Virus record (IMG/VR): IMGVR_UViG_3300035698_023758
Length of the DNA stretch: 64,000 nucleotides
From: an uncultured virus (IMG/VR IMGVR_UViG_3300035698_023758)
Taxonomy: Duplodnaviria; Heunggongvirae; Uroviricota; Caudoviricetes
Strand: one strand, 5' to 3'
The position numbers and the translations under genes are program-made. A model generated the notes under the pieces. It worked only from the letters and a program-made list of their open reading frames with translations, was not told the origin of the DNA and made no database searches. Below, one piece after another: positions 8,413-53,152 of this stretch; the stretch's first letter is position 1; every line of letters starts with the position of its first letter.

Positions 8413-8436
8413 ATTGATTAACTTTCGAGAATTAAG

Positions 8437-8510
8437 TAGGGATGGCAGGGCTCGAACCTGCAACCTGCGAATTAGAAGTTCGCTGCTCTATCCAATTGAG
8501 CTACATCCCC
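8437..8510 (-). tRNA. tRNA-Arg(UCU)
   Basis: GGGGATG/CATCCCT acceptor stem, GCTC D-stem, GCGAA-CT-TCT-AA-TTCGC anticodon arm, GCAGG-TTCGAGC-CCTGC T arm; CCA not encoded. Confidence 0.95.
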
Positions 8511-22566: not shown

Positions 22567-22911
22567 CTATTCATCGCTTAAAGAAAAGCCGATAAAATCA
22601 TCAACACTATCTGGTTTATTAATATCGAAGGACTGTTTAGATTCTTTTAAGTGACTAACATACCAAAAACCATAACTATCTAATGATGTTTTTTCCTGTG
22701 TTTCATAATACGTCATTTTCTTATTAATATGTAAAAAATGCCCAAGCAATTCCATGTTGATCTCATAGATCTTATATTCTAAAGCATGCTTGGAAAAGCT
22801 TTCTATTATCACAGATGCTTTATCATGACTATATTTATTTAATTTGGTAACATTATCTGTCTTGCTAGCATACTTTAATAAAGAATCACGTAAGGATAAA
22901 ATTAATGTCAT
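22567..22911 (-). CDS. LSDP-family small protein
   Basis: SFDINKPDSVDDFI. Confidence 0.6.
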   Translation of the reverse strand: MTLILSLRDSLLKYASKTDNVTKLNKYSHDKASVIIESFSKHALEYKIYEINMELLGHFLHINKKMTYYETQEKTSLDSYGFWYVSHLKESKQSFDINKPDSVDDFIGFSLSDE

Positions 22912-24879: not shown

Positions 24880-25315
24880 CAATGGCAAAAAATCAAGCAT
24901 TATCGATGATAAAGTTGCAAAACTTATGGAGACAGTGCAAAATAAACGAAGATCAATCGCTACTTTAACCAAACCATCATGGTTAACAAATTGTAGTCTT
25001 GTTTTACCAGGATTTGAGCGGATTAATATACAGATCGAGAAAAATTTGTCCCTGCTTGCGATAGCTATCGGGACTCTTTCTAGAATGAAGGATGACACCA
25101 CAGTTGTCATGAAAGATCTTCAAATTGATATCCCAATTAAGTGGCAAAATTACTTGATTGATGATTGGATTACGGATCTCAGTCTTCGGATCAAAGCCAC
25201 TCAAATTAAAGAAGAACAGACAAAATTGAAAAATCTCGAAATTAAATTACAGCCATTATTAAGCGAAGATCAGCGTCGTGAAATGGCTTTAGCCGAAATT
25301 GAAAAGCAATTATAG
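24812..25315 (+). CDS. coiled-coil hypothetical protein (true start probably ~24882, with a homopolymer frameshift)
   Basis: ATGGCA+A-run is one A short of reading MAKKSSIIDDKV. Confidence 0.55.
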   Translation: MINLIFFTFMPNLKTAFLRNGYDNGKKSSIIDDKVAKLMETVQNKRRSIATLTKPSWLTNCSLVLPGFERINIQIEKNLSLLAIAIGTLSRMKDDTTVVMKDLQIDIPIKWQNYLIDDWITDLSLRIKATQIKEEQTKLKNLEIKLQPLLSEDQRREMALAEIEKQL

Positions 25316-26587
25316 AATTTGAGACAACCAGAATTTAAATTCCTTTGGGTTTTTTCTTTCAAAGGCATACCATGTTCTATGCGGCTTTGAATCTTCATTG
25401 CCCGCATAGTCTTTAAACTTCTCGATTATATTCCAGTCTTGAGAAAAAGCATCTAAAAATCCTTGCAAAGACCAATTTTGAGACCAATTCTTAACATGGG
25501 GATCTTCTTTATCAATATACTCTATGAAAATATACCTTCGAGATAATTTATTATATAAGTCAACTTGCCATTTAAAGTCTTTGTTTTGTCTGCATAAATG
25601 ATGCATAACAGACGACACTATTATACAATCTGATTCTAACCTATCAGTCCAATATATCACTTCTTTTGTAACAACTTTTCGTAATGGTTCCAAATCTTCA
25701 GTTAAGTTAATATCATAAAATGTCACAGATGAATCATGCTTTTTAGCATGTAAAAATCCTTTTGTTATAGCATTTTTAGAATTGTCTATGCAACAAATTT
25801 TAGTATTATATGATTCTAATGCAAATGAGTTATACCCATCATTTCCACCAACATCTAGAATTGTTTTAATATCTAATTTAGATATATTCATTTTCAACCA
25901 ATTGGTTTCTTTATCGTAAATTGGTTTATGTGGGATTGGGAGTGGCCTCTTATTATAATCATCCCATATGTTATCATTTTCAGATATATTACATAATTTT
26001 GATAATTCTTCCCAGGATTCTAATTTATCTGGTTGGAGATTTTTTAGTAGTTTTTCAAATTCTGTTCCAACATATTGTCTTAAAAGCGTTTCCTTTATTA
26101 ACCCGTAAGCCGACCCCTTTTGGACCCCCACCGACCCTATGTCGACTAAAAGAGGGCGAGAACCGGCAAAGGAGAAGTTTCCAAAGCATGGTTCTTGACA
26201 CATCATTGGCCATAGGATTATATTAATCTTAGAGCACGCTTTCAAAAATTCAACATGATGAATATTTGTCCATATTTTCCCACATTTTTGATAGAATAAT
26301 GTAAATGGATTATATTCTGATTTATAAATTATCCTATTTCTTGCTCTTTCTTGGCCAAAATAACATGGAAAATCATCTGGATTAATGTCTGTTTTAACAA
26401 ACTTAGAAATCAATCTCTTTTCGACTAATTCCAAGTATTTATCAGAATTTAGAAATTTTGGAACATGTCTCCATCGTTGATTTATTGATACTTTTGGAAT
26501 TGCTCTATAGACTGATTTACCATCAGTATAGGTTTCACATTCATCAAGACCACCACCAATGAAATATAAATTTTTCATACCTACCAT
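25310..26587 (-). CDS. class I SAM-dependent methyltransferase with N-terminal extension
   Basis: TILDVGGNDG, IDNS, SSVMHHL motifs. Confidence 0.75.
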   Translation of the reverse strand: MVGMKNLYFIGGGLDECETYTDGKSVYRAIPKVSINQRWRHVPKFLNSDKYLELVEKRLISKFVKTDINPDDFPCYFGQERARNRIIYKSEYNPFTLFYQKCGKIWTNIHHVEFLKACSKINIILWPMMCQEPCFGNFSFAGSRPLLVDIGSVGVQKGSAYGLIKETLLRQYVGTEFEKLLKNLQPDKLESWEELSKLCNISENDNIWDDYNKRPLPIPHKPIYDKETNWLKMNISKLDIKTILDVGGNDGYNSFALESYNTKICCIDNSKNAITKGFLHAKKHDSSVTFYDINLTEDLEPLRKVVTKEVIYWTDRLESDCIIVSSVMHHLCRQNKDFKWQVDLYNKLSRRYIFIEYIDKEDPHVKNWSQNWSLQGFLDAFSQDWNIIEKFKDYAGNEDSKPHRTWYAFERKNPKEFKFWLSQIL

Positions 26588-26853
26588 TTTTTCCTAGTGC
26601 AAAGTTCATAGATGGTTTGAAAACATTTAGGATCTGCTGTGTTAAATGCGTAAGAAAGTTCTTTTGGTTCACCCAATTTATACTGCATTATGTTATATTT
26701 TTCATTTTTAACAGTTATAACAGAATATATTTTACTTGTTCTTACAGAAACATATGGATTAGCAGTTGTTGTGTATAAGCTTGCGGCTATTTTCCCATCG
26801 ACAAAATAATTATAAATCGCAGAAAGAAGAACTATCTCAAATTTATTTGTTAT
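26581..26853 (-). CDS. LSDP-family small protein (ATA start; missed by the ORF track)
   Basis: 90-codon open frame overlapping the Pth2 stop (ATAA), ending YAFNTADPKCFQTIYELC. Confidence 0.45.
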   Translation of the reverse strand: MTNKFEIVLLSAIYNYFVDGKIAASLYTTTANPYVSVRTSKIYSVITVKNEKYNIMQYKLGEPKELSYAFNTADPKCFQTIYELCTRKKW

Positions 26854-27206
26854 AGTAATGGTAAATGCCCAGTGATAACATCAATCTTTGAGACTTCATG
26901 TGGTCCAATGGCAACACATGTGTTTGTTGGAATACCATCAAATTCAGTCCTGCCACTATCTGTTATTAAATGTGTGGTAAGACCAGCCATTCTTGATTTA
27001 TTATAAATATACAATAATTCTTCTTCTGTTTTTACCACAACACAAATCTTTGGATAATCGTTATTTACCCATATATATTCTTCTTCTGTAAGCGATCTTC
27101 CATAATTTTCAAGCAAGAAAGCTGATGCCGCATGCCCTCCTTGTGATACCATTTTCCCTTTGCGTATGTTTAACTTACGCATTACAATTACTTGTTTAGT
27201 TTCCAT
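26850..27206 (-). CDS. pth2: peptidyl-tRNA hydrolase, Pth2 family
   Basis: KQVIVMRK..KGKMVSQGGHA, KICVVV, ITDSGRTE, TCVAIGP, ITGHLPLL. Confidence 0.93.
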   Translation of the reverse strand: METKQVIVMRKLNIRKGKMVSQGGHAASAFLLENYGRSLTEEEYIWVNNDYPKICVVVKTEEELLYIYNKSRMAGLTTHLITDSGRTEFDGIPTNTCVAIGPHEVSKIDVITGHLPLL

Positions 27207-28414
27207 TTTTTGATTCTTTTCATTAAGTCGTTTTTAAATTTTAAAAAATCTATTTTAATTGGTTGTGGGTTATTGTGGTCATTTATATCATTATGTATAG
27301 CAAATAAACATGTTGCAACAGTTATTATAACAGTCGCCATAAAAATGATTATAATAGCGACCATTGGTAAATCAACATCAAGATAACTGAATTCTTCAAA
27401 GTGTTTGCGTTTCCAAAGTTTCTTGGATTTATCAGCAATAAAATGAATAGTCTTTTTAAGATCAAGGTCCTTTTGATCATTAATAAAGTCTTTAATTTCA
27501 ATTTTTAAAACATCATTACCAGCATAACCATCAGGGGACCAACAAAATGAGTTACACCATATTGGATTGTTATTATCATCAATCGAGATACACGTAACAA
27601 GTTCATTTTTGTTGCCGCCTTTCCACAACGATTCTTGATTTAAACCTGTTTCAAATGGTTCATTTTTGAAGATAATTAACCATAATCTTAATTGGTATTG
27701 TGCACCCATTTTAGCATTATGAAATTGCAGCAATTTGTTAGCATCTGATTTTTGCGGGTGATTTCCAAGGATTGGTGGGTCATCAAATCTGTTAGGAAGA
27801 TCGGGGTATTGAAATAAGTGTTTTATTTCTTTTTCACTTAAACTTTTAAATTCATAAATTCCACGGTTTGCTTGCACTCTATTTTCATATGAATATTCTG
27901 AAAAAACTGGAGTTAAAGTTTTATCATCATTATCCCATTTGCTTGAATACATGTCACCATCGTCGGAGTAATAACTTCGATGCTGATCAACAAACACATT
28001 ATTACCAAATTTGCTTTTAATTAAATTATAAAAATCCTTGTCGATTCTTATTTTTTCATTATTGCTTCCATACGCTATCCATTTTTCAGGATGATAGTCT
28101 CTATATGAGCAATCATATGTTTCTGTGCAATATTGCGGTCTACCGTCAGAATCAGTGCCGCATTGATATTGTCTAGTACATGTTTGGGTGATCCATTCAT
28201 CCCAATCTTCATAATACCTAGCTTCAACGATCCACCCTCCGTGTCTTTCAAAATCGCGAGTCATTACTGATTCTGAACATGCTGATACAAGTGGGATTAT
28301 GATTAATACTGGTAAGAATGGTATAAACAATTCCCACCATGTGACTCTATGTGGAAATAGAATCCTCATGAAGGGAATTGAAACGATTGGTATTAATAAT
28401 GCTAGCCATTCCAT
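27188..28414 (-). CDS. phage membrane protein
   Basis: N- and C-terminal TM helices; WKGGNKNELV segment. Confidence 0.75.
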   Translation of the reverse strand: MEWLALLIPIVSIPFMRILFPHRVTWWELFIPFLPVLIIIPLVSACSESVMTRDFERHGGWIVEARYYEDWDEWITQTCTRQYQCGTDSDGRPQYCTETYDCSYRDYHPEKWIAYGSNNEKIRIDKDFYNLIKSKFGNNVFVDQHRSYYSDDGDMYSSKWDNDDKTLTPVFSEYSYENRVQANRGIYEFKSLSEKEIKHLFQYPDLPNRFDDPPILGNHPQKSDANKLLQFHNAKMGAQYQLRLWLIIFKNEPFETGLNQESLWKGGNKNELVTCISIDDNNNPIWCNSFCWSPDGYAGNDVLKIEIKDFINDQKDLDLKKTIHFIADKSKKLWKRKHFEEFSYLDVDLPMVAIIIIFMATVIITVATCLFAIHNDINDHNNPQPIKIDFLKFKNDLMKRIKKWKLNK

Positions 28415-28956
28415 TAGTTTTTATTTTCAAATAAGTTAACTTCGTTATCTTCACCAGCCGAAAACGCTTCATTGGTTTTACTTGATGTGACGATAATGGC
28501 TTCCAATTTTTCTCTTCCACCAACAAAAATGCTGGATGGCAATTCTGTTAGGATATTGTCGTGTTGTTCTACAATGTTCAATAACTTTTGCTGATCCCTA
28601 TGAAATGATTCACGTTGTGACTCAATTGTTGTCATTAATTTTTTGAATAATTCTGGGGAAATATCGATTTTTGATTGTGTGAAAAAACTAGCTAATTTTC
28701 CTTCTCCAGCAATCCCTTTCTGCTCACTCATAATGTCAGTAAATGCTTCTTTAAATGAGTCACGTTCTCTTTCTGACACTTGTGCGTTCTGTTGAATGAT
28801 TTTCCATGTTTTATCAAAGCTTGATTCGTTCGCTTTTTGTTGTGCCTTGAATTTGTTTCGCAATGATACTTCTGTATTATGTGCTCCCATATACATAATC
28901 AAAACGAAAAACGCTGACAAGAATACGGTTCCTAAAATTGCTAAAATTGTCTTCAT
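28414..28956 (-). CDS. membrane-anchored coiled-coil (LemA-like) protein
   Basis: N-terminal TM, coiled coil, LPSSIF near the C-terminus; coupled to the downstream membrane gene. Confidence 0.65.
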   Translation of the reverse strand: MKTILAILGTVFLSAFFVLIMYMGAHNTEVSLRNKFKAQQKANESSFDKTWKIIQQNAQVSERERDSFKEAFTDIMSEQKGIAGEGKLASFFTQSKIDISPELFKKLMTTIESQRESFHRDQQKLLNIVEQHDNILTELPSSIFVGGREKLEAIIVTSSKTNEAFSAGEDNEVNLFENKN

Positions 28957-29178
28957 ACGTAGGGTCCTATTGCCTTATTGTTATACTTGTTTTTATTTTT
29001 AATGATTGGTGTGGCTTTACATCCACACATTGGGGCTACTGCAGCCCCAATCTTAATAACAATCATTATCAAAGAATGGCTCAAAATATTTGAACAGATT
29101 ATTCTCTAATATTGTTACATGTTTTGGGATTATTGTTAAATATCAAAGATGCCTCATTATTTATAAAATACAGAAAAA

Positions 29179-29655
29179 TTAGCTCATGACTTTCCATATT
29201 GCACCAGTTATAGCCACAACAGATGCTAAAGCTACTATAAATATTATATACCTACCATTGCTAAAGTGTATGCGTAGATCATTAGATGGCGGTACTTTTA
29301 AATATTTTTCAGTTATTCTTATGGCCTTGTTTATACTACTTGGATCAGATAGATCTATTTTATGATTTTCAGTTGGATGCATACCATAATCGCTGTTGAT
29401 GTTTATTATTAGTATTGTCATATAATCATCAGTTATCCAGGCTTCTAATTTATAATTATTATTGTCAGCTTGGATTTCTAAAGTAGTTGATTCATATTCA
29501 GATATTGGTGTATGTCTTGGGTTCCATCTAATTTTTGTCCATAATTTAACATTCCCATGCACTTTACTGGTTTTAGATACTAAGTATAATGGATAAAGTG
29601 CGGCATAATCATGTACTTGGCACTTATCTCTATCGACAGAATTTACTGCTTGCAT
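29179..29655 (-). CDS. LSDP-family protein with C-terminal TM helix
   Basis: KIDLSDPSSINKAI followed by a TM segment. Confidence 0.65.
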   Translation of the reverse strand: MQAVNSVDRDKCQVHDYAALYPLYLVSKTSKVHGNVKLWTKIRWNPRHTPISEYESTTLEIQADNNNYKLEAWITDDYMTILIININSDYGMHPTENHKIDLSDPSSINKAIRITEKYLKVPPSNDLRIHFSNGRYIIFIVALASVVAITGAIWKVMS

Positions 29656-29667
29656 ATTGGTCGCCCA

Positions 29668-30206
29668 TTAGATCCCTAAATTTTTAAATTTACTAATTAA
29701 AATCGATATGGGCTTATTTTTACCAGAGTATTGAGATAATAACCAATTTATTAATTCTATACTTTTCTTTTTATATTTCTCTTTTAATTTTCCGGCTTTC
29801 ATTCTTTTATTTAAATTGTCATGCCTATCGCATAATTTGACCAATATGATAATATTTTTCAGATCCTCATCATTGACTTTTTGTAATTCCGATTGTATAT
29901 GCAATAGTGGTTGGTTTTGGTGTTTGTTGTTAAATTTTTCATCCTGGCTAAGACTTTGAATTACATTAATAATAGAATTTGGTAGTCCAAGTTCTTCGAT
30001 ATGCCGGTTTAATTTTGTTATATCACCGCCATTTTCAAGGTAATCGTGTAATAATCCCGAATATACACCAATCTTGCCAGATTTAATACTGTTTAAAAGT
30101 TCAGCTACTCTTTTGGAATGCTTTTGTTTATGCTTTGGTAATAAATCTAATCTATGCTTCCAATAGCCCTATCCAAGTTAAGTTCAGTTATTAATTGCAA
30201 CTTCAT
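29668..30206 (-). pseudogene. HD-domain phosphohydrolase (RelA/SpoT-hydrolase/Mesh1-like), with a 1-nt frameshift near 30160
   Basis: HSKRVA...GLLHDYLE...LVKLCDRHDNL in one frame; the N-terminus MKLQLITE (ATG 30206) is in the adjacent frame. Confidence 0.7.
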
Positions 30207-30315
30207 GCTTTAGATTTGATCAAGTGATAATCCTTATGAATGTTAGGTGCTAATATACATAGATAGTTTCACTAATGATCAATCAATTAAAATTGCGACA
30301 GAGCCTCTTTATGTG

Positions 30316-30636
30316 TTATTCCCCGTATTGTTTTTTAGACGCTCTGCCGACAAGCAAAATATCATTCTTACCCAAGTCACAAATAGCGACTGGTGAGTCC
30401 TTGTCCAGAACCCACAAAGTCCTACTTGATCTTTCAGATTCAAAGTTTGGGCCATTGATAGTAAACCAGTTATGATCATACAAAACAGCCGACGCCGTTT
30501 TTAGCATTTCACATTCTTTATTAGCGTCAATTGTTTCTTGTCTTAAATTATTTATAAGTTTTTGTGCCCATTGTGGTAATCTTTTTTCTCTACTCATCAC
30601 CACTATGGGGTTATGTTTATCGATCAAGTTACTCAT
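30316..30636 (-). CDS. hypothetical protein
   Basis: AGGAG SD; RLPQWAQKLI segment. Confidence 0.65.
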   Translation of the reverse strand: MSNLIDKHNPIVVMSREKRLPQWAQKLINNLRQETIDANKECEMLKTASAVLYDHNWFTINGPNFESERSSRTLWVLDKDSPVAICDLGKNDILLVGRASKKQYGE

Positions 30637-30904
30637 ATTTTACTCCTAATAATTCATATAAAAATTCTTCTAATGCCTTAAAGTATTTTGAGTCAGCTAA
30701 ATCACATTTTTATTACTTTTTGAGAATGTAATAAAATACTCAATTATTACATTCGTGATATCCTTATCGCAATCATAGCAACTAAAATAATGGACTTGTG
30801 ATGTAGGATTTTTTAATTTTGTGCGTTTCTTTTTTAATGCCTTTTTTTCTTTGCTTGTTAATCGTTTATTATTATTCTTTTTTCTTTTAGCGATTGACAA
30901 TATT

Positions 30905-31885
30905 CTATTTGACATGTAATGTGTAATCTATAAGTGAATTTGCCATAATTTTGAGAGCGGTATCTCTATCAATATCATCTCCCCATGTTACTTTAATGAT
31001 CCTATCAAGAAGCTCTCCAGAAAAATAGTCGTCAACTTTATCTGTCTTGATATTACGATCATCAAACGAAAACCCAGACTGACTGAACCATTTTTCATAT
31101 ACGGCGATTGGTCTTGACACCTTTTGATTATGTTCAAGCTTAATACCGTTTTTCATTAATTCATCTGGTGTCATTGCTAAGTGTAAGAATGCCCTATTGA
31201 CCTGTTCATACAAATGCCCTCCATGTCTTGATGTCCATGGGTGTAATCTGACGTGTGCAATACCATCTTTTTTTAGGATTTTAGATACCCATAATAACAA
31301 ATCTGTTGGATCTTCTCCTATAACGTGATCTAAAACATCATTCAGTATCACTATATCAAATGGATTTTCAATCGCATATTTTTCTATAACAGATTTTTTA
31401 TCAGAAAACAAAAAATTATTATCATTAAAGGAGCTCCATCTATCATTCTTAGAAATATCATAACCAGCAACATTTTTGGCTGTTTTTGACAGTTCATATG
31501 TGACATGGCCATCTCCACATCCACAATCAAGGATGCTTTTACCTGTAAAGTCACATTCAAGTGACGCTACAATTTGCATTGCTCGAAATTTTTTCTCTGA
31601 GTCATCGGTGACAATTAATGATGGGTTAGTGGCTTCTGGCCATTCTTCAGAATTAAAATCGGGCGGTTCCCCTAGATCAGCGGTGGGGACACTGGAAGAT
31701 TTCAAAAGGATCTTTCGCGGTGTCTTTTTTTCTGGTTTTGAAATTGTTTTTTTCTTTGTGGATGCCGGATTTGGTTTTTTGCCAAGCATCGCTCTAATCG
31801 TGTTTAAAGATTCTATGCCTTTTAATAAGTTTACTTCAAGGCGTTCTATGGCTTCTAATGTTAGTCTTATTTCTTGTTTATCCAT
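30905..31885 (-). CDS. class I SAM-dependent methyltransferase (paralogue of 53956-54807)
   Basis: ILDCGCGDG, DVLDH, RLHPWTSRHGGHLYE. Confidence 0.85.
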   Translation of the reverse strand: MDKQEIRLTLEAIERLEVNLLKGIESLNTIRAMLGKKPNPASTKKKTISKPEKKTPRKILLKSSSVPTADLGEPPDFNSEEWPEATNPSLIVTDDSEKKFRAMQIVASLECDFTGKSILDCGCGDGHVTYELSKTAKNVAGYDISKNDRWSSFNDNNFLFSDKKSVIEKYAIENPFDIVILNDVLDHVIGEDPTDLLLWVSKILKKDGIAHVRLHPWTSRHGGHLYEQVNRAFLHLAMTPDELMKNGIKLEHNQKVSRPIAVYEKWFSQSGFSFDDRNIKTDKVDDYFSGELLDRIIKVTWGDDIDRDTALKIMANSLIDYTLHVK

Positions 31886-32541
31886 GGATCATCTACTTCT
31901 GTTCTTGAAATTGGGTTATTTATGTCTAATTTTTTTAATCTGTCTTTGATTTGTTTTAATAATAATTCATTTGGGATTTGCATTATTTTGCCGATTTTCG
32001 ATTCTTCGGAGCCATGTTTTAATTCCGTAGTAAAAAGATCATTACCAGGGGGAACAATCCAATACTCTTTTAAATCAGTAAGTATTGCAAAAACTCTACT
32101 TGTATAAGAGTGTGTGGTGTTGTCATTGTCTGATGTGATCGTTACAACATCATCAAACGCTACTTTATAAATGTATGCTGGATTACAATCCGGTTCTGCC
32201 CACCTATCGATAGAACAAAACTTAAAACCATATGTTGTATTAGACTCATTTATTAATTCGACATGATAAACATGATCTAATACTTTGGACATAGTACAAG
32301 GAATTTGCTTATGATAGCTACTATGAGTTTCATGTACAACTGTAGAAATAAATTTGCGATTGTCAGAAAATGAAATATCTAAGCCAATATTTTGGAGCCG
32401 TTGATCAATATCAAATTTTATATCGTCCAGTTTTTCTTTAACACTAATGTTTGGTTTGTGCGTAAAACAATCTACCCATGGGTTGACAATCTGGGTTAAA
32501 AAAGAATTAAAAATTTTCATAAGTTTTTTATAAAGCGTCAT
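31867..32541 (-). CDS. hypothetical protein
   Basis: 224-aa ORF. Confidence 0.6.
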   Translation of the reverse strand: MTLYKKLMKIFNSFLTQIVNPWVDCFTHKPNISVKEKLDDIKFDIDQRLQNIGLDISFSDNRKFISTVVHETHSSYHKQIPCTMSKVLDHVYHVELINESNTTYGFKFCSIDRWAEPDCNPAYIYKVAFDDVVTITSDNDNTTHSYTSRVFAILTDLKEYWIVPPGNDLFTTELKHGSEESKIGKIMQIPNELLLKQIKDRLKKLDINNPISRTEVDDPWINKK

Positions 32542-32968
32542 TGATTATTCTTTTTACTTTTGAAGATTGCAATAGATCGCTTATCACGCAAAGGTTCATT
32601 TCTTTTTGTAATGATTTAATTCCTGGCTTAAATGATCGTTTATATTTTTCAAGAGATATCTTAAGATCAAGGCATATTTGGTTTATAACTTGATCTTTTT
32701 GAAGTTTACTTGTGATCATTAAAATATTGTCGCTATTTATGCCTTTTGTTACTTTAATACCTTCATATTCAAATTTCTTTTTGTTTTTTTGTTCTAAATC
32801 TTTATAAACAAATATTATTTGAATCGTGCTTTCGTATTTTGTAACGTCAACCATTTCTGGCATATCATTGTTTGATAGGTCATATATAACACAGCCATCG
32901 CTTCCGTCTGCTAGTGTTCTTGTGTATGATTTGCTTGATACATCATTTTTAGATACAAAAACGTACAT
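32528..32968 (-). CDS. hypothetical protein
   Basis: AAGGA SD. Confidence 0.6.
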   Translation of the reverse strand: MYVFVSKNDVSSKSYTRTLADGSDGCVIYDLSNNDMPEMVDVTKYESTIQIIFVYKDLEQKNKKKFEYEGIKVTKGINSDNILMITSKLQKDQVINQICLDLKISLEKYKRSFKPGIKSLQKEMNLCVISDLLQSSKVKRIINDAL

Positions 32969-33013
32969 CTTATTCCTTAAAAGAATTGGGCGGGGTTACC
33001 CCCAAGAATTATT

Positions 33014-33430
33014 TTACGTTTCGTAAAACGCAGATAATTCAGCGACAATTTTATCAAGATCTTTTGGCAAATCGGACTGAATAACATCTTCTGGGCATTC
33101 TTTAGGAATTCTAGCATTCCTATATTCTGATAAGATATGCAGATATAAGTTGTTATGCTTATATTTACGAAACCCAGGTCCATAAAACGAATGCTTGTTA
33201 AGCTTGTGATAACCAAATTCGATATAATCTTCAGGGGCCTTTGGTTTTTCACCATTTCGATTATGGTCCATTTTACTTGTCCATCGAATAAAACGTTTAC
33301 AATCTTTGTATGCCCTTAACAAAATTTTGTGTGCTTCTTTAAGTTTAATAAACCCATCGTAATCAACAGGATGAAAACCAAAGTTGCTTTTGAATACATT
33401 TTGTGTTTGAGTAGTCATTTTTATCTCCAA
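33014..33430 (-). CDS. hypothetical protein downstream of the Pth2-like readthrough gene
   Basis: GGAGA SD before MTTQTQ; SNFGFHPVDY segment. Confidence 0.7.
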   Translation of the reverse strand: MEIKMTTQTQNVFKSNFGFHPVDYDGFIKLKEAHKILLRAYKDCKRFIRWTSKMDHNRNGEKPKAPEDYIEFGYHKLNKHSFYGPGFRKYKHNNLYLHILSEYRNARIPKECPEDVIQSDLPKDLDKIVAELSAFYET

Positions 33431-33503
33431 AAATTAATCAGTGTAACCAAGAACGGTGAATTTATATTACATCAATACTCGCAAAAATTTCTTATTGAAT
33501 TCT

Positions 33504-33560
33504 TCATGGGGCTCTCTCTTGGTAGGGCCAATCTTTTAGAGTTTTTAGTAGTCAGTGCAT
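33504..33560 (-). CDS. candidate readthrough mini-ORF MH(UGA)LLKTLKDWPYQERAP*
   Basis: ATG CAC TGA CTA C; same ACTGACTAC context as the upstream gene; ends R-A-P-UGA. Confidence 0.4.
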
Positions 33561-33564
33561 ATAT

Positions 33565-33897
33565 TTACCCTTTTACTAATTGTAGTTTATTGAAAAGCTT
33601 GCGACCATCGCCCATGATTGGTTCTGTGGCGATTGCAGTTAAAGAATTGTCAAGGTCTGGTTCAATAAATGTATTATATTGGATATTATTGATATTGAGT
33701 TTATCGATTTCTTTTTGCAAATTATTGGTTTTACAAAATACGATATGAGGATGTGGATTATTAGAATCTAATATACCCGTCCTAGAGGCTTCTAAAACAG
33801 CATGCATGCCCTGAACAGCTTGCTGCCCTGTGGTTAAATGACGATCGACGATAATATAAACGTGACCGCCATAATTTTGTAGTCAGTTCCAAGTCAT
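33565..33897 (-). CDS. Pth2-like peptidyl-tRNA hydrolase with an in-frame UGA at codon 5
   Basis: AGGAGGT SD, 6 nt, then ATG ACT TGG AAC TGA CTA; continues HVYIIVDRHLTTGQQAVQGMHA..FIEPDLDNSLTAIA..LFNKLQL. Confidence 0.8.
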
Positions 33898-33941
33898 ATT
33901 AGCACCTCCTTATTTAACGAAATATTTTTGATTAAAAAAGA

Positions 33942-34033
33942 ACTGGGTGTCCTTCACAAGCACCAGTGCTTCAGACGGACAATCTTAGCCACTTACAAAA
34001 ACCAAGATCGTTAGAAATGAAGGAACACCCAGT
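33942..34033 (-). ncRNA. candidate three-way-junction leader RNA upstream of the Pth2-like gene
   Basis: P1 ACTGGGTGTTCCTTCA/TGAAGGACACCCAGT, P2 GATCTTGGT/GCTAAGATT, P3 AAGCA/TGCTT, followed by a U-rich tract. Confidence 0.55.
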
Positions 34034-34080
34034 GTTCACCACTAACCAATTTAAAATACATTCGAAAATTATTCTAAAAA

Positions 34081-34599
34081 TCAGTTAATATTTTTACCTG
34101 TTCTATCAGAGTACAACCATTTATTGCCAGAATAATTGCCACCATTCCTGATTTTTAATACTGTAACAGAATCGGGAATATCTTCAAAACATTCATCTTG
34201 ATCATCAACATAAACATCAACACCAAGATCCTTAATAGCTTTAAATTTTTCATCAAGTCTTGGAACTATAACTAACTTATCAAAATAGATACCAAGTGAC
34301 ATAGCGTAATTTTCAGCCTTTTTTGAGTCATCCCTATGAGTGATTATTATTACAGCACCGGGCCATAAATTACTCAAAATCTTAAAAAATTCTGGGGATT
34401 CATCGAGAGTTCCGTCTAAATCTAAACCAAGAGTTGGGGCATCAAACATATTTTTAGTAATAGCACAAACATCTTTTTGTGCTTCACTAATATCATGAAT
34501 GGCTAAATTAGTTTTAAGTCGTGAAATGTGAAACAATACCTGATCAAGTGCCTGCATGACAAACTCACTACAAGAATTAAAAAAATGGTTTTCTGACAA
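34081..34599 (-). CDS. HAD-superfamily phosphatase
   Basis: LDLDGTLD motif I, ITHR motif II, conserved K, YVDD motif IV. Confidence 0.8.
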   Translation of the reverse strand: MSENHFFNSCSEFVMQALDQVLFHISRLKTNLAIHDISEAQKDVCAITKNMFDAPTLGLDLDGTLDESPEFFKILSNLWPGAVIIITHRDDSKKAENYAMSLGIYFDKLVIVPRLDEKFKAIKDLGVDVYVDDQDECFEDIPDSVTVLKIRNGGNYSGNKWLYSDRTGKNIN

Positions 34600-35302
34600 T
34601 TATGAAAGATTTGGAGATAAAGCACCAAATCCCGATAAATTATCTGACATTATAAGTCTCATATCAAAACACTTTGGAGCAATGCTCACAAAATATTTAG
34701 GTAGCGGAGACAATGGGATTGTTTATGAAGCCGATGACGGAGACATAATAAAATTCACAATAGATAAAAATGAGGCATTATTGTGGGCAAGACTTAAAAA
34801 CAAAAAAGTCCCTGGCATAATAATCCTAAAAGATGTAATAAATCTATCCAGCAGTAAGACAGGTGACACGCATGTCTTTGTCATAAAAGCTGAATCAGCA
34901 CCCCATGATGTTACACAAGAACAGTCTAAATTAATTCAAAATGCTTATAAAGAAACGAATCATCAAACACAACAAGATTTAAAGAAATTAAGAATTACCG
35001 GAAATAAAGAAGCATATATAAATAGAAGAGCAATAAATTTTGTGAGAGCATTCCAAAAAATCGCAGATATTGATCAAGCATTCGCAAATATCCCAGGTAT
35101 GATCATGGATATTGCTGATAAACACCAAGCATTTATTTATGATTTAAGACCAGACAATTTTAGACTCAATAAAGATGGGATGGTATTATTAACAGACCCG
35201 TCTGTGCCAAATCTTGTTGGTTCGCATGCTGAACCAGAAGAATTAACATATGAAGATAAAATAGATTTAACTCTTGGAACAATTCAATTGTTGTTTGAAT
35301 AG
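34556..35302 (+). CDS. protein-kinase-like (PKL/APH fold) protein
   Basis: LGSGDNGIVY Gly loop, IIKFT..E, YDLRPDNF, LLTDP. Confidence 0.75.
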   Translation: MTNSLQELKKWFSDNYERFGDKAPNPDKLSDIISLISKHFGAMLTKYLGSGDNGIVYEADDGDIIKFTIDKNEALLWARLKNKKVPGIIILKDVINLSSSKTGDTHVFVIKAESAPHDVTQEQSKLIQNAYKETNHQTQQDLKKLRITGNKEAYINRRAINFVRAFQKIADIDQAFANIPGMIMDIADKHQAFIYDLRPDNFRLNKDGMVLLTDPSVPNLVGSHAEPEELTYEDKIDLTLGTIQLLFE

Positions 35303-35371
35303 GCACGACAGGATTCGAACCTGCATCTTAAGAATTTGAAGTTCTTTGTTCTACCATTAAACTACGTGCCC
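35300..35371 (-). tRNA. opal-suppressor-type tRNA, anticodon UCA
   Basis: GGGCACG/CGTGCCT, GTTT-AATGGTA-GAAC, AAGAA-CT-TCA-AA-TTCTT, 5-nt variable loop, GCAGG-TTCGAAT-CCTGT; not tRNA-Sec geometry. Confidence 0.9.
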
Positions 35372-35382
35372 ATTTTATTGAA

Positions 35383-35763
35383 TCATACTATTAGCCATTG
35401 ACTTGCATGCTCATTGATTTGTGACTCAATATCTCGCACTCTTTTTTGTAAAGATATGCCCTCTTCTACGTCAGATTTTTCAGATTTATACGACACTCTG
35501 GCTTTCCAAAATTCGTAGCGTAGCATTGCTTTTTCATACGATTCCGCTAATCTTAAATCCCCCAACTCTTTAAACCATCCTTTACGACAGTCAAAGCATA
35601 ACCAACTTACAACATTGTTAGAAATATGTATTTCCGAACACATTGCTTCAGGTCTATTAGAATCATATAATTCATCTCCTGAACCGTTTCCACATCTTTC
35701 ACAAGGTCTATTCATTATTTTTCTCATCTTTCTTATCTTTAACAGTTTTATTATGGGGTTCAA
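35383..35763 (-). CDS. zinc-finger hypothetical protein
   Basis: CERC...C..H...LCFDC. Confidence 0.6.
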   Translation of the reverse strand: MNPIIKLLKIRKMRKIMNRPCERCGNGSGDELYDSNRPEAMCSEIHISNNVVSWLCFDCRKGWFKELGDLRLAESYEKAMLRYEFWKARVSYKSEKSDVEEGISLQKRVRDIESQINEHASQWLIV

Positions 35764-35865
35764 CTACTTTAACCCCACAGACATCAGATCCTGGTTTTAG
35801 AGCATTCTCATACATGCTTGGGTCAGAACACCCAAGTGTTAAAATACTATAAACTCCACCGTTTT

Positions 35866-36192
35866 TCATATTTCATCCTTAAAAATAAAATCAACATCTT
35901 GCATGAGACTTTTGAGTTCACTTTCGCTTGTAATATCATACCACTTTATTTCCGCAATGGGTTGTGCTGGTGCAGCGATGGACACTTGGGCGTGGTGCGG
36001 GGTTTCTTGATCCTTGCGTTTAGATATAATTTCAACAATTGTTGATGGTTTGCATATATTTAATCGCATAATAGCATTACCAAATGTAAAATTATAATCT
36101 GAGCGTACACGCATGATCACCATTTTTTTATCATACTTATCATATTTATCTTTAATTAGTTTTACAATAATATTATCTGGTTCTTCTATCAT
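35866..36192 (-). CDS. probable LSDP-family protein
   Basis: PDNIIVKLIKDKY ... WYDITSESELKSLM. Confidence 0.5.
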   Translation of the reverse strand: MIEEPDNIIVKLIKDKYDKYDKKMVIMRVRSDYNFTFGNAIMRLNICKPSTIVEIISKRKDQETPHHAQVSIAAPAQPIAEIKWYDITSESELKSLMQDVDFIFKDEI

Positions 36193-36194
36193 GC

Positions 36195-36689
36195 CTATAA
36201 TTTGTCCAACTTAAATGTAAATTCAAATAACATTTTATTAATTTGTTCTTTGCTCATTATTTTATTATTTTGGCATGTTTGTGGTGCTTCTCTTTGGGTT
36301 TTGCTTGATATTTCAACCACCGAGAAAACAAAGTCACAATTGAATGGCTCAACAGTATGCCAAACATTTGACTTCATTGAATATTCACTACCTGTATTTA
36401 AAAAAATTCTTGTAGATACTGGTGGCGGTTCTGTTGTTAAATCATCAGAATACCCAATATCAGACCAATATGAGCCAAAAATAATTTTAGATTTGAAATC
36501 CCACGGATGTGGATGGTAAAATGGCTTTCGATTTTTGATTGGATAGATTTTGTGAAAACAAATTTTTTTGTTTTCATGCTTAGTCCAAATTCTATCAACA
36601 TTTGGGCTAGAATTTCTAATTGCCAGACCATTCCAATCTTTCAAAGGTAGACCGGCTAATTTTATGTATAATTCTATCGTTTCATCCAT
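36195..36689 (-). CDS. cupin-fold protein
   Basis: YHPHPWDF..IIFGSY ... VWHTVEP. Confidence 0.6.
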   Translation of the reverse strand: MDETIELYIKLAGLPLKDWNGLAIRNSSPNVDRIWTKHENKKICFHKIYPIKNRKPFYHPHPWDFKSKIIFGSYWSDIGYSDDLTTEPPPVSTRIFLNTGSEYSMKSNVWHTVEPFNCDFVFSVVEISSKTQREAPQTCQNNKIMSKEQINKMLFEFTFKLDKL

Positions 36690-36748
36690 GATTATTCTCC
36701 ATTTTTAACTTATTTACCAAAACAAAATTATAATAAATTGGGCGAGAT

Positions 36749-37315
36749 ATGAAAATGTTAATTTGCGAAAGACCATATTTTTCAGCAAAAGTTGGCATGT
36801 TTGCCAGAAAAAACGGCGAATATACTAGGCCAATAATTGCAAGTTTAGTTGATATTAGAATAGAAGATTGTCTTAAAGACATAACATTATACTCAAAAAG
36901 TGCCTCTAATTACATTGCTAAGTTACCAGATATTAAGGAAATAGGGCAAATTGGAAAATATCTCATAGCGACCGCTAATTTAATTTCTAAAGTTAACCTT
37001 ACAAAAGAAGAAGCATATAAATACTTAAGAACTGGATTGTACATTTTATTACCTGATTCTCCGGAATCACCATTATGGGAATATTCAAAAGCACCATGGT
37101 GGGAATACGCAATGTGTTTAGATGAATATAATGGGTACATCAAAGCACCAAAAAAACATAGAGCAGGAGAACCAAGCCCAGAGGAAATTGACGAAAGATT
37201 AGATGAATTTAAAGAAAATAAAGGTTTGATAAAAGCCCTCTCCCCCCAGACGATTGAAAAATGGCGACAAGAAGGGAAAAGAGAGCTATTTAATAAATCG
37301 ATTGAAAGGATTTAA
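36749..37315 (+). CDS. hypothetical protein
   Basis: 188-aa ORF. Confidence 0.65.
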   Translation: MKMLICERPYFSAKVGMFARKNGEYTRPIIASLVDIRIEDCLKDITLYSKSASNYIAKLPDIKEIGQIGKYLIATANLISKVNLTKEEAYKYLRTGLYILLPDSPESPLWEYSKAPWWEYAMCLDEYNGYIKAPKKHRAGEPSPEEIDERLDEFKENKGLIKALSPQTIEKWRQEGKRELFNKSIERI

Positions 37316-38858: not shown

Positions 38859-38909
38859 TTTTACTCATAACTGGCTTTTACTCATAGCTGGCTTTTACTC
38901 ATAGCTGGC
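38859..38909. repeat. 3 x 17-bp tandem repeat TTTTACTCATAGCTGGC
   Basis: direct tandem copies without spacers, overlapping the end of 38882-39307. Confidence 0.8.
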
Positions 38910-39307
38910 TTTTTACTGTTTTTCCAAAAGCGGATTTGAGAACATTTTTCAGGGTCCTTTAATGCTTTTGATAAAGCTAAGACCTGAATTTCAACGTCTT
39001 CTTCCTCAACTTCATCAAAAAAGCAGATTAAAGATTGGCACATTTTTTTGTTAAGAAGAACACAATATACATTATTTATTCTATCAATTGTAAATGATGG
39101 CCAATCTTGTTCTTCAATATCACTAGATTTTCTTGACCAGCTTCCTGGGTTTATTAAATGATCAGCAAAGGCATATACTTCATCATCAATCTCATCAAAA
39201 TCGAAAATAAATTCTGACACAAGATCAGTCATTTGTCTATTCATTTGAATCATTGTAATTGCTTCAAATGGTACAACAACGTTAAAAGCTGGCTTTGTCT
39301 TTTGCAT
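38882..39307 (-). CDS. acidic hypothetical protein with internal duplication
   Basis: AAGGA SD; two similar halves. Confidence 0.65.
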   Translation of the reverse strand: MQKTKPAFNVVVPFEAITMIQMNRQMTDLVSEFIFDFDEIDDEVYAFADHLINPGSWSRKSSDIEEQDWPSFTIDRINNVYCVLLNKKMCQSLICFFDEVEEEDVEIQVLALSKALKDPEKCSQIRFWKNSKKPAMSKSQL

Positions 39308-43051: not shown

Positions 43052-43471
43052 ATGAAAAATTTTGAATTATGCCTTGAAAATATCTTAAAAGAAGAAAACG
43101 ACGGAAAGTTTACTTCGGCTGTTGCGATAGTAGAATATAAAAATATGTGGCTACTTGGATTATCCACCGATAGCGATGATAGGCATTTAAAATGGGTTCA
43201 TCCAGGTGGGCATATCAAACGAGGTGAATCGCCTAAAAATGCTGCAGTAAGAGAAGCCAGAGAAGAAACAGGGGTAAAGTGTAAGGCTATTGGGGAACCA
43301 TTTAGAATGCCGGGGCATAAAAACATAGCATTTGTTCACTGTAAAGTAACATCTAAACCAAAATTAGACAGTAACCATGAATTTTCTGCTATAGGATTCT
43401 TTAAAGCAAATGAGCTAAATTCACTGACATTATACAAAAACGTGCGTAAGCTCATAGACCGAGTAAAGTAG
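43052..43471 (+). CDS. NUDIX hydrolase
   Basis: Nudix box PGGHIKRGESPKNAAVREAREETG. Confidence 0.92.
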   Translation: MKNFELCLENILKEENDGKFTSAVAIVEYKNMWLLGLSTDSDDRHLKWVHPGGHIKRGESPKNAAVREAREETGVKCKAIGEPFRMPGHKNIAFVHCKVTSKPKLDSNHEFSAIGFFKANELNSLTLYKNVRKLIDRVK

Positions 43472-43831: not shown

Positions 43832-44112
43832 TGCAAATCGCCATCAACGAAGAAGTTTATGTCCCATTTTGGATCATAATAGAATATCTTGACATATCCC
43901 CACCAGATCCATTTGTGTTATGCAAGGTTACTGACATCTATAAAGGTGCAAGCATTGGGGGGAAAAGTGCTGTTGACATATGCGATCTGTATATAAAGAA
44001 AGACATCACAGCGGAAACAGTTTTGATGAATCATCTTATTAAAAAAGAAGACATCGAAGCATGGGCAAACAGGATAGGCAATTGGTTTAAAGACTTTCCA
44101 GACACCATATGA
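43831..44112 (+). CDS. hypothetical protein
   Basis: translationally coupled within the operon. Confidence 0.6.
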   Translation: MQIAINEEVYVPFWIIIEYLDISPPDPFVLCKVTDIYKGASIGGKSAVDICDLYIKKDITAETVLMNHLIKKEDIEAWANRIGNWFKDFPDTI

Positions 44113-45074
44113 AAATTCCATTAATAGACACCCATAGGCACTTTGGCGGTTCAATTTCTAAAGAATGCGTGTGGGAAATAATACAAGAAAATAACCTAAG
44201 CCATATAGCAGCATCTCTTAATGATGTTAAAAACGCGATGGTTATTGATGAATCAATTGAAAAATTAAGTTTTCACAATTTTTTGCATAAATTTAAAATA
44301 TTGGATTGTATATCTTGGGACGAAGATTCTATAGATAAAAGTGTAAAACACGTATGCAATGACTTAGAAAAAGAAGGAATAGATTTTTGTTGGCTAGATT
44401 TTTCTATCAACAAATACATGAACTTGCCCTGGCATAAATCAGAAGCGATAAAATTTATATACAATAGATTTGAAAATTATAGACCAAAACAAGTTGGTCT
44501 TATTTTATCATTAAAGTATGAAAGCTTAAGACATACACAAACAAAATACGCAGAATTAATAGACAACCCAGAGATATCTGATATTTTAATGGGAATTGAT
44601 CTTGTAGGGGACGAAGAGTATTTTTCTTCAGAATTTTATAGTCCAATATTCAAAAACTGGAAATCTGCTGGAAAAATGGTCAGAGCCCATGTTGGGGAAT
44701 CACAATCAAGCGATAATATTACATCAGCAATAACCGAAATGGGTGTAACAAATATCGCACATGGTATAAAATGCGTCGAAGACTTCAATATTATGCAACT
44801 AGCAAAAGACAACGACATCACATTCGACGTGGCATTAACAAGCAACTATTTAACTGGAGTTTGTAGTAGACAGGAACCACATCCAGTATTACATATGCTT
44901 AATAATGGGTTAAAGGTAACAATAGGTAGCGATGATCCAGTGCAATGTAACACATCATTATCAAATGAATTAATAAAATTCAAAGGCATGATTCAAGAAT
45001 GCGATGATTCAGAGGAATTGTATAGATTCACGCAAGAAACAGCATTTGATAATTCAAAAAGATTTATGAATTAA
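44109..45074 (+). CDS. add: adenosine/adenine deaminase (amidohydrolase superfamily)
   Basis: DTHRHFGGS, GIDLVGDE, AHVGE, IAHG, TSN, GSDDP. Confidence 0.9.
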   Translation: MKIPLIDTHRHFGGSISKECVWEIIQENNLSHIAASLNDVKNAMVIDESIEKLSFHNFLHKFKILDCISWDEDSIDKSVKHVCNDLEKEGIDFCWLDFSINKYMNLPWHKSEAIKFIYNRFENYRPKQVGLILSLKYESLRHTQTKYAELIDNPEISDILMGIDLVGDEEYFSSEFYSPIFKNWKSAGKMVRAHVGESQSSDNITSAITEMGVTNIAHGIKCVEDFNIMQLAKDNDITFDVALTSNYLTGVCSRQEPHPVLHMLNNGLKVTIGSDDPVQCNTSLSNELIKFKGMIQECDDSEELYRFTQETAFDNSKRFMN

Positions 45075-45803: not shown

Positions 45804-46139
45804 ATGTACTTAAAGGAAACCATGATGACAAAAACAGTATTATTCCAATTTGATAGTATTGAAGACAGATCAGAATTAATAGAATTCTTAAATTCTTCAA
45901 GCAGATTTTCGCATGTGACAAATAATATGCAATTAGATCCATCCATTAAAACTGGGTACGAAAAAGAATGTGAACTATTTGTTTCTGGCCAAAAAATGGT
46001 GGAAGGTAACTTCACAGACTTAAACCAAAGATTTAAGCAAGAAATTGGCTCGCATTCCGCATCTGTAGAAGTAAGAGAAAAACAGGGTGATGACACTTGG
46101 AAAACAGTGCTAAAAAGATCCAAACAAGCACAAATCTAG
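45804..46139 (+). CDS. hypothetical protein
   Basis: AAGGA SD before MMTKTV. Confidence 0.6.
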   Translation: MYLKETMMTKTVLFQFDSIEDRSELIEFLNSSSRFSHVTNNMQLDPSIKTGYEKECELFVSGQKMVEGNFTDLNQRFKQEIGSHSASVEVREKQGDDTWKTVLKRSKQAQI

Positions 46140-46912
46140 AAGAACCGCAATTACCATTCTTACTAGGTGATATACCAATAGATAAAGGTCAAACAAGACC
46201 ATTTGGTGGGATTAATCCACATAGTGAGCACTTTAACAACATAGGACAACAGTTCTTAAGATTCTTCATTGATCACGGAAGGCTGACCAAAAGATCAAAA
46301 GTATTAGATGTCGGATGTGGGACAGGAAGAATAGCAAAAGCATTAGAAGAATTCTTAGAAGGCGGAAAGTACCAAGGATTTGATTGCAATAAAAGATTCA
46401 TTGAGCATTGTAATAAATCATATAAAAAATCATTTAAATTCCAACATTTTGACCTTCAGCATGATGAATATAATAAAAATGGGATAATAAATCCAGAAAC
46501 ATTTAAGTTCCCATACAAAGACAATAGCTTTGACTTTGTAACCGCTATAGCAGTATTCAATCACTTAAATTTTAAAACATCGGTAAATTATATATCAGAA
46601 ATGATAAGAGTATTAAGACCGCAAGGGGTATTTTTTAGCACTTTTGTGTTATTAAACCAACGCTCTATGGAAGCTATAGAAGCAAAAAAAGAACACCCAT
46701 TTAAATTCACTGTAAAAGAAGATGACGGATGGTATGAATATGAAAAAAGAAAATTTTGGAATGTAGCATTACCAGAAATGGATATAAGACGTGTATTCGT
46801 AAACAGCGGGATGATGATTAAAGAACCAATACGATATGGTGAATGGTGTGGATCACCAGCAGCAATCACAGGGCACGATATTGTGGCAGCAATTCGAGGT
46901 CAATGGCGTTAA
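46097..46912 (+). CDS. class I SAM-dependent methyltransferase
   Basis: VLDVGCGTGR, FPYKDNSFD, AVFNHL, RVLRPQG. Confidence 0.9.
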   Translation: MENSAKKIQTSTNLEEPQLPFLLGDIPIDKGQTRPFGGINPHSEHFNNIGQQFLRFFIDHGRLTKRSKVLDVGCGTGRIAKALEEFLEGGKYQGFDCNKRFIEHCNKSYKKSFKFQHFDLQHDEYNKNGIINPETFKFPYKDNSFDFVTAIAVFNHLNFKTSVNYISEMIRVLRPQGVFFSTFVLLNQRSMEAIEAKKEHPFKFTVKEDDGWYEYEKRKFWNVALPEMDIRRVFVNSGMMIKEPIRYGEWCGSPAAITGHDIVAAIRGQWR

Positions 46913-47060
46913 GATCATCCCTGGCCGCTAAGAATCATATAAAACAAATAAACAATAAGAGATATCATTCCTATTGCTGAAATAAAAGCACCGAATGCCA
47001 TAGCTTTAAAAAAATCACCAGCTGTATTACGCATCTTCTTTTTTATATCCATAATTCATC

Positions 47061-48773: not shown

Positions 48774-48793
48774 TTGATATCCCAAGGAAAATA

Positions 48794-53139: not shown

Positions 53140-53152
53140 TTGGATCTCTTTT

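Follow-up and report, generated by a model that had tools for sequence, protein, structure and literature searches.

Phages are held to begin a change of genetic code by way of suppressor tRNAs. In the portions of the published texts cited here, Borges et al. (10.1101/2021.08.26.457843) report suppressor tRNAs in 35–40% of recoded gut phages, and a survey of jumbo phages (PMC13037316) reports them in 60.78% of alternatively coded jumbo phages. Borges et al. also describe an Agate phage that has gained a TGA suppressor tRNA but is read in the standard code, and they propose a model in which acquisition comes before recoding and follows a stage at which the stop codon has turned rare (in the standard-code relative, 4 of 146 genes end in TGA). 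The same source describes RF1 and TrpRS as accessory code-change genes of the Jade phages that are not universal in the recoding family. Yutin et al. 2021 (PMC7886860) report suppressor tRNAs without apparent reassignment in crAss-like phages, and describe "suppressor pre-emergence" as a single anticodon mutation of a tRNA-Gln. Both of these sources limit recoding to late gene regions, with the other modules in the standard code. Phage suppressor tRNAs without visible recoding have therefore already been described, and the locus analyzed here is a further example. It is a tRNA gene with the anticodon UCA, which lies on the minus strand at positions 35300–35371 of a 64,000-nucleotide stretch from an uncultured Caudoviricetes virus (IMG/VR record IMGVR_UViG_3300035698_023758; this whole stretch is called the window below). 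As in the crAss-like and Agate cases, a phage tRNA is complementary to a stop codon while the genome is in the standard code where it is visible. We hold, with moderate confidence, that the product of this gene is a functional suppressor of opal (UGA) codons, and that the large phage which encodes it uses the standard code over this 64-kb stretch.

ARAGORN placed a tRNA with the anticodon tca at 35299–35372 on the minus strand. The match to the Rfam tRNA family RF00005 spans 35371..35300, is full length (model positions 1–71 of 71), and has a score of 74.0 bits (E 2.4e-14), where the gathering score of the family is 29 bits. The two features concerned are as follows:
35300..35371, minus strand: tRNA gene of 72 nucleotides (nt) with the anticodon UCA, a class I body, A73 and no encoded CCA (ARAGORN, RF00005 and cloverleaf pairs).
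35337..35339, minus strand: anticodon U34-C35-A36 (TGA on the plus strand) in the loop CUUCAAA (sequence and RF00005 alignment).

The complete cloverleaf with the loop CU-UCA-AA that the first-pass annotation had described was recovered, with standard pairs at 21 of 21 stem positions (18 Watson-Crick pairs and three G.U pairs, at 1-72, 13-22 and 49-65). The acceptor stem has 7 bp (GGGCACG/CGUGCCU, with G1.U72), the D arm has a 4-bp stem and the 7-nt loop AAUGGUA (position 20 is U and not A), the anticodon stem has 5 bp (AAGAA/UUCUU), the variable loop has 5 nt (AAGAU), and the T arm has a 5-bp stem and the loop UUCGAAU. The 3′ end carries the discriminator A73, and CCA is not encoded. The conserved positions on which the tertiary fold depends are present (U8, A14, G18G19, U33 and the T loop), as is A9, and the A36-A37-A38 run is the usual context in tRNAs that read UNN codons. 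The energy of the imposed cloverleaf was -17.6 kcal/mol, and the unconstrained minimum-free-energy fold (-18.7 kcal/mol, z -1.89) kept the acceptor and T arms and re-paired the AU-rich middle, so that it is the covariance model, and not thermodynamics, that supports the cloverleaf. The gene is thus intact and canonical, and its anticodon is unambiguous and reproducible.

ARAGORN printed the label "tRNA-SeC" for this gene, which could be taken to mean that it encodes a selenocysteine tRNA (tRNA-Sec). Bacterial tRNA-Sec has an 8-bp acceptor stem with a 5-bp T stem, a 6-bp D stem, a long variable arm and G73. The body found here, with 7 + 5 bp, a 4-bp D stem, a 5-nt variable loop and A73, rules this identity out, as the first-pass annotation had argued, and the label is given because of the anticodon alone. 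A second trivial explanation is that a CCA, UCU or UCG anticodon was turned into UCA by a mistake in the assembly or the reads, a source of doubt that had been raised together with the original observation (CCA or TCG being the examples named). When Joint Genome Institute (JGI) metagenome contigs were searched with a pattern made of the acceptor stem, the UCA loop and the T loop, one contig matched (L030); it corresponds to window positions 25300–37249, is 100% identical over 11,950 bases and represents the window's own DNA. A search of sequencing runs gave 15 DNA runs, all labelled salt lake metagenome, and no RNA run; four of the DNA runs were compared, with the possible source run left out. 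The contig from one run (X2) covers 33500–36073 and that from another (X3) covers 35222–35384, each with 0 differing letters, while the contigs from two more runs (X4 and X9) cover the tRNA incompletely. The samples are dated 2017–2018 and possibly belong to one campaign, so the independence of the runs is partial. Since the tRNA is identical in the contigs from both further runs and in the metagenome contig, a one-off assembly or read error is unlikely. Taken together, a tRNA-Sec or an erroneous anticodon is an extremely improbable account of the gene.

The window itself reads TGA as a stop codon. Among 99 greedy non-overlapping open reading frames (ORFs) of at least 70 amino acids (aa), the set that was also used for coding density, the stops were TAA in 46, TGA in 36 and TAG in 17, and 10 of the 36 TGA stops overlap the start of the next co-oriented gene as ATGA. 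The ORF for a cytidylyltransferase at 49488–50189 ends in TGA and covers positions 2–216 of the 217 in its Pfam profile. TGA is a real stop in this stretch and the standard code applies here, in agreement with the first-pass annotation. That annotation had also spoken of "further" UGA-interrupted genes, which implies that one had been seen; no convincing case was found in the window. Only three ORFs have at least 40 open codons upstream of a TGA boundary. Two of them, at 1.3–2.8 kb, were dismissed as lying in compositionally aberrant DNA in which minus-strand stops are rare, and the third (22567–22911) was dismissed for lack of a plausible start upstream. No gene in the window needs UGA decoding. 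The median number of codons to the next stop of any kind was 8 after TGA, 9 after TAA and 10 after TAG, and the next TAA or TAG follows the TGA stops after a median of 10.5 codons (36 values), so read-through would lengthen the products only slightly. Fewer long extensions follow TGA than follow the other stops, a comparison that is confounded by the ATGA overlaps.

These gene ends also bear on a code switch within the same genome, in which capsid, tail and lysis genes that are not seen here would hold in-frame TGA codons that are decoded late, and the 64 kb would be the part that stays in the standard code. Such a switch is the explanation by an opal suppressor in its strong form. The published restriction of recoding to late gene regions favors it, and much of the genome must be unseen, given that neither Pfam (a scan that covered the 58 ORFs of at least 100 aa) nor PHROGs gave a terminase, major capsid, portal or polymerase match in the window. 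On the other hand, the sole recognizable virion genes of the window, at 27188–28414 and 28414–28956, are both uninterrupted, TGA stops are abundant, and the order of the genes shows no significant clustering of them (runs test p 0.26; the longest TGA-free run, of 13 genes, p 0.055). We regard such a switch as possible but doubtful.

To address which amino acid the tRNA may carry, four approaches were run, and no isotype could be assigned; the earlier statement that the residue cannot be told by eye was justified. In a scan of one genome each for 185,579 species for the same acceptor stem, U8-A9-G10, T loop and A73, 22 loci were found, which ARAGORN called as 10 Lys(ttt) and 12 Arg(cct). The Lys(UUU) tRNAs come from Rhodospirillaceae-type Alphaproteobacteria and additionally match the UCA tRNA in the T stem and the GGUA D loop, and the Arg(CCU) tRNAs come from Acidobacteria and have a GGAUA D loop, that is, A20, in 12 of 12 cases. 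Global identity was calculated with the anticodon masked against those of 78 distinct tRNAs from E. coli and one alphaproteobacterium that are no longer than 80 nt. The highest value was 77.5% for the alphaproteobacterial Lys(UUU), a figure that is biased upward because this genome was chosen through the acceptor pattern. The alphaproteobacterial Arg(UCU) followed at 69%, E. coli elongator Met, Gly(CCC) and Arg(UCU) at 66% each, E. coli Lys at 63% and E. coli Trp at 60%. In a BLAST search against 50,697 phage records, the nearest tRNAs were mixed (Asn, Lys, Trp, Ser and many Arg; 75–86% over partial lengths), with Arg the most frequent over the anticodon and T arms. The best match in E. coli genomes was a tRNA-Arg, over positions 19–63 (77.8%, E 6).

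The first-pass annotation had pointed to a likeness with the only other tRNA that ARAGORN finds in the window, which it places at 8436–8510 with the anticodon tct, also on the minus strand:
8437..8510, minus strand: tRNA-Arg(UCU) with G1.U72, A73 and A20, 73% identical to the UCA tRNA outside the anticodon (ARAGORN, Rfam).
The likeness holds for G1.U72, A73, the T-stem strand GCAGG and 52 of 71 positions (73%, anticodon masked), but it is only moderate, and U20 in the UCA tRNA stands against A20 in this tRNA-Arg. The D loop and T arm of the UCA tRNA look closer to tRNA-Lys(UUU) than to Arg. As a separate observation, the tRNA-Arg(UCU) fits the commonest arginine codon of the window, AGA (20.1 per 1000 codons, the other five having 1.4–6.3), which is the usual pattern of codon supply.

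The identity elements were then compared with those of the reference tRNAs. U35 is the major identity element for lysyl-tRNA synthetase (LysRS), C35 is an element for arginyl-tRNA synthetase (ArgRS), and C35-A36 are elements for tryptophanyl-tRNA synthetase (TrpRS). The reference Lys tRNAs have A73 and GGUA, and the UCA tRNA agrees with the 10 cellular Lys(UUU) tRNAs in A73, acceptor stem, T arm and GGUA D loop, but C35 replaces U35. It has the C35 and A73 of the Arg type and U20 where all 10 reference Arg tRNAs, all 12 Arg(CCU) matches and the tRNA-Arg of the window carry A20. C35 and A36 would suit the Trp type, but both reference tRNA-Trp (E. coli and the alphaproteobacterium) have A1-U72 and G73 where the UCA tRNA has G1.U72 and A73. 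The Gly type expected of the tRNA-Gly(UCA) of code-25 bacteria (G1-C72, C2-G71 and U73, the last in 6 of 6 reference tRNA-Gly from E. coli and the alphaproteobacterium) is contradicted by G2-C71 and A73. The UCA tRNA, then, combines an acceptor end of the Lys or Arg kind and a Lys-like D loop with an anticodon that keeps C35 for the one enzyme and C35-A36 for the other. On these sequence features, arginine may tentatively be placed first among the candidate residues, although with less than balanced support; tryptophan is possible but doubtful, to the same degree as another residue or poor charging, and lysine would be an improbable choice. A residue other than tryptophan would also threaten UGG codons by U.G wobble unless U34 is modified.

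The mismatched identity elements raise the question of a neutral or decaying paralogue, in which an anticodon mutant of an Arg(UCU) or Lys(UUU) lineage would be poorly charged, would barely suppress and would have no selected role. UCA is one change from UCU, the acceptor stem recurs, among cellular tRNAs, only in Lys(UUU) and Arg(CCU), the elements do not match for any synthetase considered, and no conserved relatives turned up in the IMG/VR pattern scans or the metagenome scan. Yet there is no decay: the 21 stem pairs and the universal positions are intact, and the gene is the top-scoring tRNA of the window, with 74 bits under RF00005 against 72 bits for the tRNA-Arg. This perfect structure has been kept despite 27% divergence from the resident tRNA-Arg, a distance which also means that the UCA tRNA is not a fresh point mutant of it. 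We consider a paralogue without a role unlikely.

Relatives were searched for in IMG/VR with three patterns, namely the tRNA body with a free anticodon, the acceptor stem with the T loop, and the anticodon arm with the T loop, and each gave 0 matches. A scan of phages for CTTCAAA with the T loop gave at least 119 loci; among the matches listed, ARAGORN found 25 tRNAs, of which 22 were Leu(CAA), one Trp(CCA), one Ile(AAT) and one undetermined, with none UCA.

If the gene is indeed a functional opal suppressor, its products could be made and used as follows. The tRNA would share a transcript with the block of minus-strand genes whose end lies 11 nt upstream, and the host RNase P and 3′ processing enzymes would trim it. 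As CCA is not encoded, it must be added after transcription, presumably by the CCA-adding enzyme of the host. A host synthetase that reads C35 would then charge the tRNA, either ArgRS, for which C35 and A73 fit and A20 is missing, or TrpRS, for which C35 and A36 fit and G73 is missing. The charged tRNA would compete with release factor 2 at UGA. It may serve to decode in-frame UGA codons in genes outside the window, for example late genes, or it may be a suppressor before recoding, a stage described for the crAss-like and Agate phages; in that case, a moderate degree of read-through would be tolerated because a TAA or TAG follows the TGA stops of this phage after a median of about 10 codons. 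Read-through of host proteins is a third possible purpose.

The last of these purposes can be taken further, to a suppressor directed at the host, which would extend UGA-ending host proteins (defense proteins included) or act as a decoy for a host nuclease that cuts anticodon loops. Since tRNA-Lys(UUU) is a known target of tRNA-cutting nucleases, the resemblance of the body to tRNA-Lys(UUU) agrees with the decoy. In the portions cited, read-through of host proteins as anti-defense is proposed for crAss-like phages in PMC7886860, and the proposal is repeated in an opinion article (PMC11025619). Suppression would, however, also affect the phage's own genes, of which 36 of 99 end in TGA, and no defense or counter-defense gene is linked to the tRNA in the window. 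A host-directed role of this kind seems very unlikely.

A further variant combines parts of the above. The body of the Arg or Lys type (G1.U72, A73) might be charged by ArgRS through C35, and UGA would then be read partly as arginine, as a device of tolerated read-through. This proposal, which we think quite unlikely, would imply an assignment, UGA as arginine, that is not described for phages, and the tRNA would act against host proteins or extend particular phage proteins and would not be a step toward TGA as Trp.

The reading of the gene as a working opal suppressor in a standard-code stretch is preferred because the tRNA is intact in score, pairs and conserved positions, because the sequence is reproducible, and because there are precedents in the Agate phage (Borges), the crAss-like phages (Yutin) and, for amber, the phage pT24 described below. 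Several findings weigh against it. The window holds no in-frame TGA with coding support, and coding density by the greedy set fell from 88.6% in code 11 to 87.1% once TGA was translated, so that, of the marks of a TGA-recoding system, the UCA tRNA is present while in-frame TGA and a rise in density are absent. No gene for RF1 or for a synthetase, TrpRS included, was found among the 58 ORFs scanned with Pfam, and the accessory genes of the Jade type are therefore lacking there. TGA is not depleted among the gene ends (36 of 99), whereas the published route, with 4 of 146, has the stop codon rare first, and this mark of the precursor stage in the Borges model is thus absent. The full identity set is present for none of the synthetases checked, so charging is presumed. 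Finally, no relative of the UCA tRNA beyond the same DNA was found in the IMG/VR or metagenome scans, so conservation cannot be shown.

Compared with the described systems, the window differs in three respects: the cognate stop is abundant, the tRNA did not arise freshly from a resident tRNA by a point mutation, and its body is not Trp-like. The first distinguishes it from the Agate phage and the second from the crAss-like example, which is a fresh point mutant of a neighboring tRNA-Gln, while the nearest resident tRNA here is 73% identical. The habitat is a salt lake here and the gut in both of those cases. The opal suppressors of phages that read TGA as Trp (code 4; Borges, Yutin) share with this gene the UCA anticodon, the phage origin and the class I tRNA, but the window has none of the in-frame TGA, the density rise or (among the 58 ORFs) the RF1 and TrpRS genes of the recoded phages. 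As for the body, A73 and G1.U72 in place of G73 and A1-U72 were established by comparison with two bacterial tRNA-Trp. Relative to the cellular Lys(UUU) and Arg(CCU) tRNAs, the acceptor stem GGGCACG/CGUGCCU, A73 and the T loop are identical in 22 of 22 pattern matches, and the difference lies in the anticodon UCA and in the missing U35 (Lys) and A20 (Arg).

A parallel in a cultured phage is Tenacibaculum phage pT24 (NC_049383.1), in which a tRNA(CUA) at 191520–191593 (1501–1575 of locus L003) is annotated as tRNA-Sup. In pT24, 34 of 268 greedy ORFs end in TAG, and coding density was 91.1% in code 11 and 89.8% with TAG as sense. In pT24 as in the window, code 11 thus serves well and the stop codon cognate to the suppressor tRNA is still in use; both phages are large, and they have a virion gene pair in common. 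The suppressor of pT24 is amber and not opal, however, its tRNA sequence is unrelated, and homologues were found for 2 of 98 window ORFs. In the portion cited, the genome announcement (PMC5502841) says only "4 tRNAs" and does not discuss the suppressor. Two other tRNAs of pT24 (L003 2013–2092 and 2380–2459), each of 80 nt, were called Ile(tat) by ARAGORN with the anticodon at position 37; they are tRNA-Undet in the record and have an unusually long anticodon region.

The genes that flank the UCA tRNA are the following:
35383..35763, minus strand: co-oriented upstream ORF of 126 aa, Cys-rich, with no family (ORF list, Pfam).
34556..35302, plus strand: convergent ORF of 248 aa, possibly protein-kinase-like, with its TAG stop at 35300–35302 (ORF list, ESM Atlas).
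The TGA stop of the upstream ORF ends 11 nt before the 5′ end of the tRNA, and the tRNA is likely to be co-transcribed with the minus-strand block. Predicted promoter and terminator sites stayed at the level of shuffled sequences (19 sites against 17.9 expected), and no ribozyme or other RNA family was found in the flanks at E-values up to 5 beyond matches at chance level. On the other side, the 3′ end of the tRNA overlaps the stop of the antisense gene by 3 nt, just as had been noted at first sight. The accompanying description of this gene as kinase-like fared less well. The sequence is present in the ESM Atlas, where the model for it aligns to protein-kinase (Pkinase) clusters with template-modeling (TM) scores of 0.46–0.60, which is weak, and also to a phage cluster with Phage_T7_kinase in 11% of its members; there is, on the other hand, no Pfam or PDB sequence match, and an AlphaFold single-sequence model, with a predicted local distance difference test (pLDDT) value of 36, was unusable. 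By the ESM Atlas alignments, the 248-aa ORF possibly encodes a phage protein kinase. It was without a relative in an IMG/VR search.

The window belongs to a deeply divergent large phage, as homologues were found for only 2 of 98 ORFs when these were compared by local tblastn with the full genomes of PTm1 and pT24 and with locus L007. The two are the 408-aa ORF at 27188–28414 and its neighbor. By tblastn, the 408-aa ORF has 27–37% identity to the Tenacibaculum phages PTm1, PTm5 and pT24, to Lak phages and to Bacillus phage G. That the phage is kin to Tenacibaculum and Lak phages and has a host among the Bacteroidota was considered but is not upheld as a firm statement, because of these 2 of 98. 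In IMG/VR, the 408-aa ORF retrieved one distant locus (L007), and there is no tRNA in that locus or its record. The Pfam families found in the window are a helicase, a ligase fragment, HTH, sigma-70 region 4, a NUDIX hydrolase and an adenosine deaminase, to which PHROGs adds a virion structural protein (28414–28956) and two phage families of unknown function.

Some other features of the window were observed. A block for sugar or small-molecule modification at 46097–54807 contains, by Pfam, three class I methyltransferases, two sulfotransferase-like ORFs, a GT2 glycosyltransferase, a CMP-sugar-type cytidylyltransferase and a NodZ-like ORF; this odd cargo for a phage suggests that glycans are modified on the host surface or on the virion. 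The adenosine deaminase at 44109–45074 on the plus strand (A_deaminase, 5.7e-31) adjoins the NUDIX hydrolase at 43052–43471, also on the plus strand (2.7e-16), both for nucleotide metabolism. The composition of the plus strand is T 50%, G 31%, A 11% and C 7% at 801–2400, is mirrored at 1–400 (A 45%, C 30%, G 9%), and is A 32%, C 18%, G 16% and T 34% in the rest of the window. Minus-strand ORFs in 1–2400 encode products rich in T, N, K, H, P and Q, and the ORF calls there are unreliable because stop codons on the minus strand are rare (few T and G); the ORF at 748–1320 nonetheless matches HTH_3 (1e-7) and phrog_2104 (7e-14). Tandem repeats lie at 38859–38913 (17 nt, 3.2 copies, 97% matches), at the start of the ORF 38882–39307, and at 62261–62327 (30 nt, 2.2 copies, 100% matches), within the ORF 62187–62582.

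For annotation, tools will label this gene as tRNA-Sec or tRNA-Sup, and there is no reason here for translating the genome with table 4. For the biology of phage code change, the published model has suppressor tRNAs acquired after the stop codon has turned rare, and the present case is an intact opal suppressor in a non-gut phage that still uses TGA heavily as a stop. Because its body fits the full identity set of no synthetase that was checked, the tRNA offers a simple test object for UGA read-through. If it is active, it would bear on how much read-through a phage can tolerate, and on whether depletion of the stop codon must come first.

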